From: Candidatus Thorarchaeota archaeon
GTDB taxonomy: Archaea > Asgardarchaeota > Thorarchaeia > Thorarchaeales > Thorarchaeaceae
Assembly (NCBI GenBank): GCA_048882325.1
Contig: JBHLRS010000004.1
Coordinates: forward strand, 1 to 19,661
Length of the DNA stretch: 19,661 bases
Direction: 5' to 3'
Each line of letters opens with the position of its first letter. The stretch's first letter is position 1. Below are positions 16,107 to 19,503 of the stretch, in pieces. The notes beneath the pieces are model-generated. The model made no database searches. It had not been told where the DNA came from and saw nothing but the letters and a program-made list of their open reading frames with translations. The translations under genes and the position numbers were made by a program.

Positions 16107-16886
16107 ATGTATAGGGTGTGTCTCACTAACGATGATGGTCCGAGAAGCGAGGGACTGTTAAAGCTTGCAGAATCGCTGATGAAGGTTGTAGAGGTAATAG
16201 TCGTTGTGCCAGATGGACAACGTAGTGCGACTGGTAAGACCTTGACCCTAAAGAGACCAATACGAATCACGGAGAAACATGATACTAATGGTTATCAGTT
16301 TGTCTCTCATGATGGTGCGCCAGCTGATTCAGTGATTCTTGCACAAGCATTCTATGAAAACATTGACCTATTGATTTCTGGAATAAATTCAGGAGCAAAT
16401 GTTGGATATCAGAGCATGTTGACAAGTGGAACAGTCGGAGCAGCCTTCGAGGCGGCCATTAGAGGACTACCATCAATTGCTGTATCTCGGCAAGCTTCAC
16501 CAGAGGAGTGGTTTGAAGCTATAGGTGCTGATGGTGATTGCGAGAAGATGTGTGAGATAATAACTGAGCTCGTTATGAGAGTCCTCAAGAAGGGTATGCC
16601 AAAAGGAATTGACATGTTAAATCTGAACTTTCCGAATAAGCTTTCTGAAGATTCTAAATTAGTAATCACAAAACCGACCAAAGTTCGAATGCATAATGAA
16701 GTTGAGGAAAGAAAAGATCCTATGGGTAGACCGTACTATTGGTATCTAGGAATTGAACGAGACCCTCTGCCAAAATCGGATGCTTATGAGGTATTCATTC
16801 ATGGAAACATCTCCTTGTCACCAGTCATTTTGGATTGGATTACCGAAAAAGAAGTGGAAACATTGGAAGAGTTCATGAAGGATTGA
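16107..16886 (+). CDS. surE: 5'/3'-nucleotidase SurE
   Basis: LTNDDG, DGAPADSV, ISGINSGAN, SGTVGAA, LNLNFP and DPMGRPYYW. AAGGAG SD before ATG 16107. Confidence 0.95.
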   Translation: MYRVCLTNDDGPRSEGLLKLAESLMKVVEVIVVVPDGQRSATGKTLTLKRPIRITEKHDTNGYQFVSHDGAPADSVILAQAFYENIDLLISGINSGANVGYQSMLTSGTVGAAFEAAIRGLPSIAVSRQASPEEWFEAIGADGDCEKMCEIITELVMRVLKKGMPKGIDMLNLNFPNKLSEDSKLVITKPTKVRMHNEVEERKDPMGRPYYWYLGIERDPLPKSDAYEVFIHGNISLSPVILDWITEKEVETLEEFMKD

Positions 16887-17883
16887 CCTTTTTCAGGGCA
16901 TCCCAGAGGGCATCGGTTTCTGGTCGTTCGAGATGGAGTCTATCTGAATCAGTTATGATTATCCTATGATTTGAGTCCTCTACAATTTTGCCAATCACAC
17001 AAGCTGATACACCTCTAGACTGGACTGTATTAACGACTTCAGTAGCATACTCAGCCTTACAGCAGATTATCATGCACCCACTACTGATAAGCTCCATTGG
17101 GTTTACATTTAACAAATCGCAGATCATCCTTGTGGATTCATCAATTGGAATTGCATCTTTGTATATCTCAAATCCTACTTTACTGGCGTCGCAGATTTCA
17201 TGAAGTCCGCCAGAGAGTCCGCCTTCAGTAGGGTCATGCATAGCTGTAACATGCCCTGTTTCAAAGGCAGCAACTCCTTCTGCAACGACACTGAGATCTT
17301 TCCTGAGAGCCTTCGCATTTGTTACAACTACCTCTCCAAGTGTGGATGATAAATAATCAAAGCCTTCAGTGGCGAGTATCGCGGCTCCTTCAAGTGCTAT
17401 TGACTTTGTCACTACAATTGAGTTTCCGGGTTTAGCTCCTGAGGATGTCACATACTCTCCTTCCCCTGTTATGCCTATCATAAACCCAACTACAATTGGT
17501 CTGTCAATCCCTTCTGTTATTTCAGAATGACCTCCAGCAACAGAGATTCCAAGTATACTAGCAGCCTCATCAATTTGCGCTGTGACAAATCCCAGTTGTT
17601 CAGGCGTCGAATCCTTGGGTAGGATAATAGAAGCTAGAAACCATCGTGGATAGACGCCGAAAGTTGCAATGTCATTAGCATTCACGTGAACTGAAAGCCA
17701 ACCTACATCAGACACTGAACCGGTTATGGGATCAGTCGCAGCAATAATAACTTTGTCACCTATTCGAATAACTGAAGCATCCTCACCTAAACTAGGTCCA
17801 AGAAGTACATCGGGATCTTTGACCCCTAACTTTTCGAACACAATCTTCTGAAGGATTTCCGGAGGTACTTTTCCAGGACGCAT
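16873..17883 (-). CDS. AIR synthase-related protein (HypE/PurM-like family)
   Basis: GKVPPEIL, GPSLGEDAS, TDPITG, VHVNANDIAT, AGGHSE, AMHDPTEGG and LISSG. The likely start is ATG 17883. Confidence 0.9.
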   Translation of the reverse strand: MRPGKVPPEILQKIVFEKLGVKDPDVLLGPSLGEDASVIRIGDKVIIAATDPITGSVSDVGWLSVHVNANDIATFGVYPRWFLASIILPKDSTPEQLGFVTAQIDEAASILGISVAGGHSEITEGIDRPIVVGFMIGITGEGEYVTSSGAKPGNSIVVTKSIALEGAAILATEGFDYLSSTLGEVVVTNAKALRKDLSVVAEGVAAFETGHVTAMHDPTEGGLSGGLHEICDASKVGFEIYKDAIPIDESTRMICDLLNVNPMELISSGCMIICCKAEYATEVVNTVQSRGVSACVIGKIVEDSNHRIIITDSDRLHLERPETDALWDALKKVNPS

Positions 17884-17903
17884 TGCAGCCACCACTAAAG
17901 GGA

Positions 17904-18020
17904 TAGGTGCGCACAAAATCCTGTGCCTGACGCATGAAAAGCAGATTCATTGCAACCCAGTACTGGGCTCTCCTCGCTCACTATGACGCCAGGCATTAGG
18001 TGGATCCTGTGCGCATCCTA
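17904..18020 (-). ncRNA. Structured intergenic RNA; candidate K-turn-containing box H/ACA guide RNA
   Basis: Nested stems with G:U pairs that favour the minus strand, a K-turn-like motif, an internal pocket and an ACA triplet 14 nt below the pocket top. Confidence 0.55.
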
Positions 18021-18072
18021 GAAACCGCGTGCATGCTAATAACATAATCGAGAGGGGCACACTATCAAAACA

Positions 18073-19503
18073 TCATTGGGGAAGATATGCTTCCACCTCT
18101 CTGAGATCTTGTTCCCTGAAACGACTTCGTGAAAGACTTCCACTCAGAAGAGTTCCAAGAATAGAGGGTTCTTTGAGAAGATCACGTGAGAGGTAAGCTT
18201 TGCCGCCTGAAGCACGAGCAACAAGATAAGCTCCGAACGTCTTTCGGAATTCTTCCACCATTAGAATAGTTTCTATCGGATCATTTAGTCCTTCTTTTTT
18301 CATTCTCAGCATAGCTGCAAGCTCCAGAGCTTCATGATAAGGGCGTTTGAGAAATCGAGGCCAATTTGATTGCTCGGGATCAACATTAACAGCAACCAAC
18401 CGCACCTTTGCCTTTCTTATGAGTCTTGCAGCTCGAACTAAATCCTGAACTGGAGTGTACTGTTCATGGCCAGGGCCAGCAGTCTGGGCAAGGGGAATGT
18501 TTGGTGAGAAATCGGATACAACTATGACAAGAGGTTCTACGTCATCATTTCTCATTCGCTCCCTTCTTATGGTTTCTAAAGATTTCTTGAGGGCCTCAGC
18601 AATTGGAGTTAGTCCTGAGATACGTAACCGACCCAATGCCCGATAGATCTTGTTCCAGTTAGTTGTAGGCACTTGAATCTCAACTGCTCCGCTGTCCTTG
18701 AATGCAATGATACCGGTACGGTCTTTGGACCCCCGTGTTTCACTTTCTATTCGTTCAAGAAACTCTCGCACCTGTTCCATGCTTCCCTTCATAGACAGAC
18801 TGACATCGATGACTAAGATTATGGTTAATGGAGTCCTACCTGTGAAGACACTCTCTCGTAAGTCATCTCTTGTGATTCTGATGGCATCATCTTCAGTGCG
18901 TCCTGTACGTGCTACAGCTGCAAGCACAGTGGTTGGAATGTGAATGCTACTTGGCTCGCCAGTGGGGATTCGTGATCTCACTGGTCGACCGTGTTTCATT
19001 GTATCAGATGATTTCAGAGACCCTGTAGCCCTAGAACTCACTCTCTTCTTTACCCACCCTCCGGATGACACTCGTGCTCTAATCATGGCACGTTTCTGAA
19101 GTTTCTCTAGATCGAAAAGCTCCTCCCCAGTATCGATATCAGGCATCTTGACAAAGAAGCCATCATCAAGTCCAAACGGGGCCTCTCGTATCTCAGACTT
19201 GGAGCCTGACACCATATCAGGTGTTTCGGGAGTGTAGGGTCTGGTGGCCAGTCCCCACTCATCACCAGGCTCGGGTCTTCCGCCACCAGGTTCAACTGTA
19301 TCAATTCCTGCAGCTGGTCCTGTGTTCCTTCGAGTCATGACTTCAAGCCATTTTCTAATAAGAAAATACATCACTGGTGCAATGACTACGGTATCAATGA
19401 ATAAGACAGGTATTGGTGGAAACTGCAGAATTTGGAGGCCGAACAACCAGTTAATCGGACTGATATATATCCAGGCAAACCAAATGAATGCTACAAACAT
19501 CAT
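18073..19503 (-). CDS. ChlD-type (Mg/Co chelatase medium subunit) vWA domain preceded by a two-TM hairpin; probably the 3' part of a -1 frameshifted gene
   Basis: HGRPVRSRIP...TTVLAAV...DDLRE, MIDAS IDVSLSM, DRTGIIAF, GLTPIAEAL and VVSDFSPNIPL match the ChlD C-terminal half. The frame stays open upstream of the ATG through the A9 run. Confidence 0.85.
   Translation of the reverse strand: MMFVAFIWFAWIYISPINWLFGLQILQFPPIPVLFIDTVVIAPVMYFLIRKWLEVMTRRNTGPAAGIDTVEPGGGRPEPGDEWGLATRPYTPETPDMVSGSKSEIREAPFGLDDGFFVKMPDIDTGEELFDLEKLQKRAMIRARVSSGGWVKKRVSSRATGSLKSSDTMKHGRPVRSRIPTGEPSSIHIPTTVLAAVARTGRTEDDAIRITRDDLRESVFTGRTPLTIILVIDVSLSMKGSMEQVREFLERIESETRGSKDRTGIIAFKDSGAVEIQVPTTNWNKIYRALGRLRISGLTPIAEALKKSLETIRRERMRNDDVEPLVIVVSDFSPNIPLAQTAGPGHEQYTPVQDLVRAARLIRKAKVRLVAVNVDPEQSNWPRFLKRPYHEALELAAMLRMKKEGLNDPIETILMVEEFRKTFGAYLVARASGGKAYLSRDLLKEPSILGTLLSGSLSRSRFREQDLREVEAYLPQ

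Follow-up and report, generated by a model that had tools for sequence, protein, structure and literature searches.

The 19,661-nucleotide stretch of DNA analysed here (the window) belongs to a metagenome-assembled genome of a Candidatus Thorarchaeota archaeon, which comprises 89 contigs and is 93% complete. On the minus strand of this window, a vWA-domain gene ends at 18073 and is followed, after a spacer of about 190 nt, by the ATG (17883) of a gene encoding a 336-residue protein of the AIR-synthase (PurM) superfamily (16873–17883), as given by its matches to the Pfam models AIRS and AIRS_C. HypE, ThiL and SelD were tried as more specific identities of this enzyme, all of which scored below the cut-offs, and only generic AIR-synthase family labels were obtained. 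Public gene calls for this protein come in a 336-residue form and in forms of 353–373 residues; the longer ones are translated through the region at 17884–17994 of the window and its counterparts in the homologues, and they probably represent mis-annotated starts.

The spacer harbors a hairpin at 17994–17922 of the minus strand. Sequence inspection recovered, base for base, every part of it given in the original prediction, namely the lower stem, the two pocket strands, the upper stem, the K-turn, the apical stem and the ACA 14 nt away. In the lower stem (H1), the 5' strand GCCUGGCG (17987–17994) pairs with the 3' strand CGUCAGGC (17925–17932) via 8 bp, including one G–U. It opens into an internal loop, or pocket, formed by the 5' guide strand UCAUAGU (17980–17986) and the 3' guide strand UUCAUG (17933–17938). 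Above the pocket, the upper helix H2 is made up of GAGCGA (17974–17979) and UC-U-GCUU (17939–17945): GAGC pairs with GCUU, and the helix continues past the bulged U17943 into a G–C and an A–U pair, giving 6 bp in total. H2 leads to a K-turn, the non-bulged strand of which reads G(3n) G(2n) A(1n) G(-1n) (17970–17973) and the bulged strand C(-1b), an AAU bulge, G(1b) A(2b) A(3b) (17946–17952). The -1 pair is formed by G17970 and C17952, followed by the 3-nt bulge AAU (17951–17949), the sheared pairs G17948·A17971 and A17947·G17972, and A17946·G17973 at the position 3b·3n. An apical stem-loop (17954–17969) lies on the canonical-stem side of the K-turn, and the ACA box (17922–17924) is located 14 nt 3' of the upper helix.

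The interval originally delimited, 17904–18020, indeed contains this hairpin; what had been left out of its description is an outer helix that clamps the whole element. The 5' strand UGCGCACAGGAUCC (18002–18015) of this clamp pairs with the 3' strand GGAUUUUGUGCGCA (17908–17921), which begins directly after the ACA, so that a helix of 13–14 bp encloses the hairpin (18015–18002 paired with 17921–17908). As a result, the ACA sits on the short side of a 7 × 3 internal loop, opposite the segment ACCUAAU (17995–18001). The 131-nt region folds with a free energy of -57 kcal/mol (z = -4.75), and none of 200 shuffled sequences is equally stable. The claim that the hairpin is unannotated agrees with our Rfam search, in which the window matched no family at the gathering thresholds, riboswitch and leader families included, and a 551-nt region searched at permissive thresholds gave only noise (E > 3). 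The outer helix was also inspected for a bulge-helix-bulge splicing motif, which was rejected given the absence of 3-nt bulges spaced by 4 bp. Besides, the sequence GCACAGGAU occurs twice on the minus strand, once within the 5' strand of the outer helix (18004–18012) and once across the end of the lower stem, the ACA and the first bases of the outer helix (17918–17926). Relatives retain only a looser GCACA(A)GG likeness of this duplication, for which no alternative pairing was found.

Covariation and phylogenetic distribution

The hairpin is a real RNA under selection. Folding and covariation analysis across related genomes supported all of its helices. In the alignment of the genus, 12 of 33 pairs show changes on both sides; 7 of these belong to the outer helix, which has 13 pairs, and 4 to the lower stem. 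In the alignment of the family, compensatory changes are found in 13 of 20 inner pairs, and the lower stem contributes 6 of its 8 pairs; 4 of the 5 pairs of the apical stem are likewise compensatory, whereas its loop varies in both length and sequence. Neither the genus count nor the family count was reached by any of 500 shuffles. When the partner strands were slid out of register, the pairing dropped to 24%–55%, compared with about 91% in the true register. RNAalifold returned the same helices, predicted the outer helix independently and left the pocket open, with compensatory changes in 21 of 30 pairs. The two pocket strands had been suspected of pairing partly with each other, a suspicion that the consensus does not bear out: it adds only a ninth pair that extends the lower stem, U17986/G17933, which is U–G in 22 sequences and U–A in 6.

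The segment CAUAGU of the 5' guide strand is the same in all 57 sequences compared. The UUCAU of the 3' guide is invariant within the family, and the strand reads CUCAUG in a sister family, as against UUCAUG here. CAUAGUGAG, CUUUUCAU and the ACA are unvarying, while the flanking protein has diverged down to 52%–59% identity. In the K-turn, the GA and the closing G of the non-bulged strand are invariant, the AUGA of the bulged strand is nearly so, and the pair G17970–C17952 is retained in 25 of 26 sequences. H2 covaries from C–G to U–A in 10 sequences, and its bulge is shifted by one position in three species. The distance to the ACA is 14 nt and lengthens to 15 nt in variants with a bulged lower stem; distances of 13 or 16 nt were never seen among the relatives with an H2 of 5–6 bp. 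The loop strand opposite the ACA differs among relatives, and the ACA is identical in all homologues, a pattern that fits recognition of the ACA by a protein.

By BLAST, 22 of 24 congeneric genomes carry the region, and at least one of the absences coincides with the end of a contig. The covariance model built for the full element matched in 31 of 31 Thorarchaeial loci, which had been retrieved via the downstream protein, in each case on the same strand and directly upstream of the AIR-synthase-family gene; it gave no match upstream of the homologous gene in the loci of Bathyarchaeia, Hod-, Njord- and Atabeyarchaeia. A second covariance model, restricted to the inner hairpin, revealed a single copy per genome. 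It was positive in 22 of 26 genomes sampled from the family at first and subsequently in 32 of 39, and the element was found in 15 of the 16 genera. With the filters off, this model further detected a copy in the sister family, which also lies upstream of the same gene and has an outer helix, although of different sequence (GCGUGCCACUU / AAGUGGCACGC).

Some gene callers run the reading frame across the region to 353–373 residues, and an open reading frame starting with TTG reaches 17916 in the window, which would be expected if the element were an N-terminal extension of the downstream protein. This reading conflicts with single-base indels inside the element between close relatives, with substitutions that are compensatory in the helices rather than confined to third codon positions, and with the Shine-Dalgarno sequence and ATG conserved downstream. 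The indels and compensatory substitutions thus exclude a coding extension, and the fold stability given above argues against a chance hairpin lacking an RNA function, leaving to either idea a probability that we regard as negligible.

Promoter-like motif and the downstream gene

Upstream of the outer helix is a promoter-like motif, CTCGATTAnnTTATTAGC (18035–18052, minus strand), which is kept in all Thorarchaeial loci and contains the TATA-like hexamer TTATTA (18042–18037). In 30 of 30 loci, the end of this hexamer precedes the first base of the outer helix by 21–24 nt. We infer that the CTCGATTAnnTTATTAGC motif is a promoter, from which transcription would start at, or a few nucleotides away from, the outer helix. 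On the other side, in 31 of 31 loci, 21–37 nt separate the RNA from the downstream AIR-synthase-family gene. A search for a terminator between the helix and the start codon found none, the longest T-run being at most 4. A spacer of this length without a long T-run leaves no room for a promoter of the gene's own and holds no terminator for the RNA; the RNA is therefore best regarded as the 5' leader of the AIR-synthase-family mRNA.

Such an arrangement raises the question of a cis-regulatory leader, which would bind a protein (for example L7Ae) or a ligand and control the translation or stability of the mRNA, with the likeness to an H/ACA guide described below being coincidental or co-opted and no guiding in trans taking place. 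The strict linkage to one gene would suit a cis-acting element as well as a guide: the RNA always lies between the promoter-like box and this gene, at the same short distance from the start codon and with no terminator, and the linkage spans two families. Moreover, the ACA is internal, the outer helix resembles the basal stem of a leader element, and the 3' guide strand lacks a good partner in rRNA. Nevertheless, the 6-bp H2 with its bulge, the ACA at 14–15 nt and the orientation of the K-turn are all features that a regulator does not need, and none of the riboswitch or leader families in Rfam was matched. Nor does a conserved pairing hide the Shine-Dalgarno region; a masking by the CACCU that follows the outer helix (CACCU...AGGUG) was considered and rejected, as it is present in this genus without being conserved in the others. 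Furthermore, in genus g17 (L153, L154 and L155, three genomes of 96%–99% completeness), the RNA has been lost, whereas the gene and a promoter-like CTCGATTGAGTTATTAAC motif are kept, with a leader of about 130 nt of unrelated, poorly conserved and weakly structured sequence in its place. The RNA is accordingly dispensable for the gene. Taken together, we consider a purely cis-regulatory leader unlikely.

The outer helix could serve in the protection of a released small RNA, as a mark for cleavage, or in the insulation of the fold from its surroundings. RNase III is uncommon in archaea. A 231-residue protein encoded in this genome (L159:1492-2187 (-), at about 103.8–104.5 kb of contig C3) ends in an RNase III domain (PF00636, scoring 45.9 bits where the cut-off is 27), and it could act on the outer helix. 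Eukaryotic host-gene and polycistronic snoRNAs, for which the stems cut by yeast Rnt1/RNase III are an example, likewise place a guide and a protein-coding gene under one promoter, and the thorarchaeal outer helix could, like the double-stranded stem flanking Rnt1-type snoRNAs, mark the RNA for excision or protect it. The two situations differ in that the RNA is located here in a 5' leader rather than an intron, and its processing is hypothetical, with the RNase III-domain protein as the only hint of a suitable machinery. Among archaeal C/D box sRNAs there are also co-transcribed examples, in which the guide shares a promoter with a protein-coding gene. If the guide were indeed released from the leader by means of its clamp, it would be a prokaryotic counterpart of host-gene and Rnt1-dependent snoRNA biogenesis; a role of the clamp helix as a processing signal would also bear on the origin of snoRNAs encoded in host genes.

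Comparison with archaeal H/ACA RNAs

Rules derived by Muller et al. 2008 from reconstituted Pyrococcus RNPs ask for an H2 of 5–6 bp with at most one bulge and an ANA located 14–15 nt from the target U (PMC2377435). Here, H2 has 6 bp and one bulged U, and the ACA is found at 14 nt, or at 15 nt in the variants with a bulged lower stem. The lower stem that closes the internal loop, for which about 8–9 bp are expected, comprises 8 bp plus the ninth U–G/U–A pair, and both strands of the 7/6-nt pocket are unpaired in the RNAalifold consensus. The upper stem carries a K-turn with a conserved pattern of a C–G -1 pair, a 3-nt bulge, G·A/A·G and A·G at 3b·3n, the non-canonical stem of which points toward the pocket, as required of the K-loop variant. 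The H/ACA-guide layout put forward in the original prediction is well supported by structure, covariation, invariant guide strands, K-turn, ACA and spacing, and it departs from the known pattern in one respect: the ACA is internal and not near a free 3' end. Known archaeal guides carry their ACA close to the 3' end or within a linker that is single-stranded, whereas here, at the level of the DNA, a strand of the conserved 13–14 bp helix directly adjoins it, and access of a PUA domain to an ACA in this setting is hypothetical.

Most of the partner proteins are encoded in the genome. Cbf5 is present in full length, including the PUA domain (431 bits), together with genes for Nop10 and L7Ae. Gar1 was not detected with its Pfam model in the assembly, which is 93% complete; the same model also failed to match in one archaeal control genome. 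As a separate observation, a gene for RNase P RNA (164.6 bits) is located about 55 nt downstream of cbf5 on the same strand (C3:141896-142234 (-) and C3:142289-143245 (-), in L160), and the two may be co-transcribed.

Based on these features of sequence and predicted structure, the thorarchaeal element is probably an archaeal box H/ACA-type RNA with a single hairpin. We propose a putative model for its action, in which transcription from the conserved promoter-like motif would yield the RNA as the opening ~110 nt of the AIR-synthase-family mRNA. It might afterwards be released from the leader, with the outer helix acting as a protective or processing stem, or else be active while still attached. 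L7Ae would bind to the K-turn, and Cbf5–Nop10, with or without Gar1, to the lower stem and ACA. The 7/6-nt internal loop would then pair with a substrate RNA, placing one uridine at the active site of Cbf5 for conversion to pseudouridine. The helix strand that directly follows the ACA speaks against this assignment, as do the missing Gar1 match and the dispensability of the RNA in one genus. A more elaborate scenario, in which the only recognisable classic H/ACA guide of the organism is kept in a host-gene leader and freed or stabilised by the clamp helix, possibly upon cleavage by RNase III, or in which a Cbf5–L7Ae RNP acts in cis and couples expression of the enzyme to the ribosome-modification machinery, appears rather improbable to us at present.

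Structural comparison with the classic single-hairpin sRNAs of archaea, such as Pab91/Pf9 of Pyrococcus and sR115 and sR435 of Sulfolobus islandicus, revealed the same lower stem, two-stranded pocket and upper helix of 5–6 bp, the same K-turn with tandem G·A pairs and the non-canonical stem toward the pocket, and an ACA at 14–15 nt (PMC2377435, PMC11077068). In contrast to these sRNAs, the thorarchaeal ACA is internal, with the outer helix directly after it, and the RNA, known here from its sequence, is the 5' leader of an mRNA and not a free-standing small-RNA gene; no sequence similarity to them was found. The atypical H/ACA-like RNAs of Pyrobaculum and Sulfolobus are likewise non-canonical, yet they bind Cbf5/L7Ae and guide modification (PMC11077068). 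These RNAs are devoid of a lower stem and of an ACA, whereas the thorarchaeal RNA has both and an extra helix in addition.

A descriptor written for the purpose, which encodes the archaeal H/ACA rules, was run over the element's own genome of 3.6 Mb. It retrieved 53 sites, compared with 40 when the sequence was reversed as a control, and this hairpin is the only convincing non-coding one among the 53. A search of the same genome for paralogous H/ACA RNAs by the descriptor and the covariance model gave no credible candidate, as the weak matches lie in open reading frames or lack a K-turn. A stand-alone RNA of the classic H/ACA type was found in another Asgard family (L149:1501-1562 (+), genome G029), located in an AT-rich intergenic spacer. 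It shares with the thorarchaeal element the 8-bp lower stem, the 7/6 pocket, the 6-bp H2 with one bulge and the ACA at 14 nt, and it differs in having a K-loop, the guide strands GUUGAGU / UUCCCC, no outer helix and no position in an mRNA leader. Behind its hairpin come a GC hairpin of 8 bp and another ACA (L149:1501-1600 (+)).

Asgard archaea are the closest known relatives of eukaryotes, and to our knowledge H/ACA guide RNAs have been catalogued only in a few cultured archaea. Our literature search retrieved no paper on H/ACA guide RNAs in Asgard archaea, which is not proof of their absence from the literature. The covariance model built from the element finds what would be a class-wide H/ACA-type RNA, with an architecture that is not known from archaeal guides, in that the ACA is buried between two helices and the guide is fused to an mRNA leader.

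Candidate substrates

A search of the source assembly for 16S and 23S genes showed that neither is assembled; the pairing of the pocket with the host's own rRNA that had been suggested was hence carried over to the rRNAs of five congeneric genomes. These gave a 7-bp match of the 5' guide strand to helix 69 of 23S rRNA, which reads GGGAC-U-A-ACUAUGA-GUC identically in all five. Helix 69 is a conserved hotspot of pseudouridines at the subunit interface. Its loop segment ACUAUGA forms seven contiguous Watson–Crick pairs with UCAUAGU, so the complementarity proposed originally exists in these 23S rRNAs and extends over 7 nt rather than 8. In this duplex, a U-A dinucleotide is left unpaired, placing in the pocket the U equivalent to position 1911 of E. 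coli. The latter number comes from aligning helix 69 by eye with its known counterpart in E. coli; when E. coli genomes were searched by BLAST with this region, no match was obtained by which to fix it.

The other half of the proposed target fares less well. The 3' guide strand aligns with helix 69 as C·U, A–U, G–C, G·A, G–U and C–G, that is, an interrupted 4 of 6 positions with the C·U mismatch right beside the target. In Pyrococcus, the duplex with the 3' guide weighs more for activity (PMC2377435), whereas the classic guides of S. islandicus can work with 8–11 bp including mismatches (PMC11077068). A perfect 7-bp match of the 5' guide was also obtained for 19 of 300 random guides (about 6%), and the total helix 69 score of 11/13 is no better than that of non-cognate guides. 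Covariation between guide and target offers no further help, because both are invariant.

Helix 69 is a recurrent target of archaeal H/ACA RNAs, as seen for motif 3 of Pab40 and for S. islandicus sR148 (for the latter, PMC11077068). The guides Pab40/Pf7/Afu4 motif 3, Haloferax sR-h45 and S. islandicus sR148 act on the same hairpin that is proposed here as substrate. These guides modify the equivalents of E. coli 1915 and 1917, whereas the thorarchaeal pocket registers only on the 1911 equivalent and its 3' guide pairing is much weaker than theirs. U1915 and U1917 of helix 69 were accordingly rejected as targets, since no register allows the pairing. Also discarded was a site near position 619 of 23S rRNA, which has the top bipartite score (7 + 6 bp) and is located in a variable, covarying hairpin. 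Its U gives way to C in one congener; the guide, by contrast, never varies. The 14 tRNAs parsed from ARAGORN, 5S rRNA, RNase P RNA and SRP RNA yielded nothing convincing, and the 16S and 23S rRNAs, tRNAs, 5S rRNA, RNase P RNA and SRP RNA examined hold no better conserved site than helix 69. We thus tentatively put forward the loop of helix 69, at its counterpart of E. coli U1911, as the most likely candidate substrate among stable RNAs, although we hold this assignment at well below even odds.

It is possible, if somewhat doubtful, that a true Cbf5/L7Ae H/ACA RNP forms on this RNA and acts on something else, be it an rRNA segment that the relatives used do not represent, a tRNA, an mRNA or another small RNA, or that the RNA, as an orphan, serves in processing or in the manner of a chaperone; such a view shares the core of the H/ACA assignment and differs only in the target. 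Room for it is left by the poor pairing of the 3' guide to helix 69, by the frequency at which the 5' match arises by chance, and by the absence of the genome's own rRNAs from the assembly. Archaeal guides are also versatile, with tRNAs and crRNAs among their targets (PMC11077068). Across the genome, a relaxed bipartite pattern fits 46 sites, which is about the chance level, and nearly all of them are in coding regions. Set against this, neither guide strand varies across the class, as would be expected of a guide whose substrate is just as invariant, for instance rRNA; no perfect 7-bp match other than that to helix 69 is conserved throughout the five 23S rRNAs, and the tRNAs, 5S rRNA, RNase P RNA and SRP RNA examined hold no comparable site.

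In bacteria, modification of the 1911 position falls to RluD, a protein-only enzyme. If the helix 69 assignment is true, an RNA-guided enzyme would perform in Thorarchaeota what bacteria accomplish with RluD, and the genus that has lost the RNA would provide a natural test. Two further observations concern the rRNA genes retrieved. The 16S and 23S genes are unlinked and, in G017 (L031/L037), are located about 70 kb apart on one contig. In addition, the 16S match spans 2293 nt in G014 (L039) and the 23S match 3862 nt in G009 (L035), which suggests large insertions or introns in these genes.
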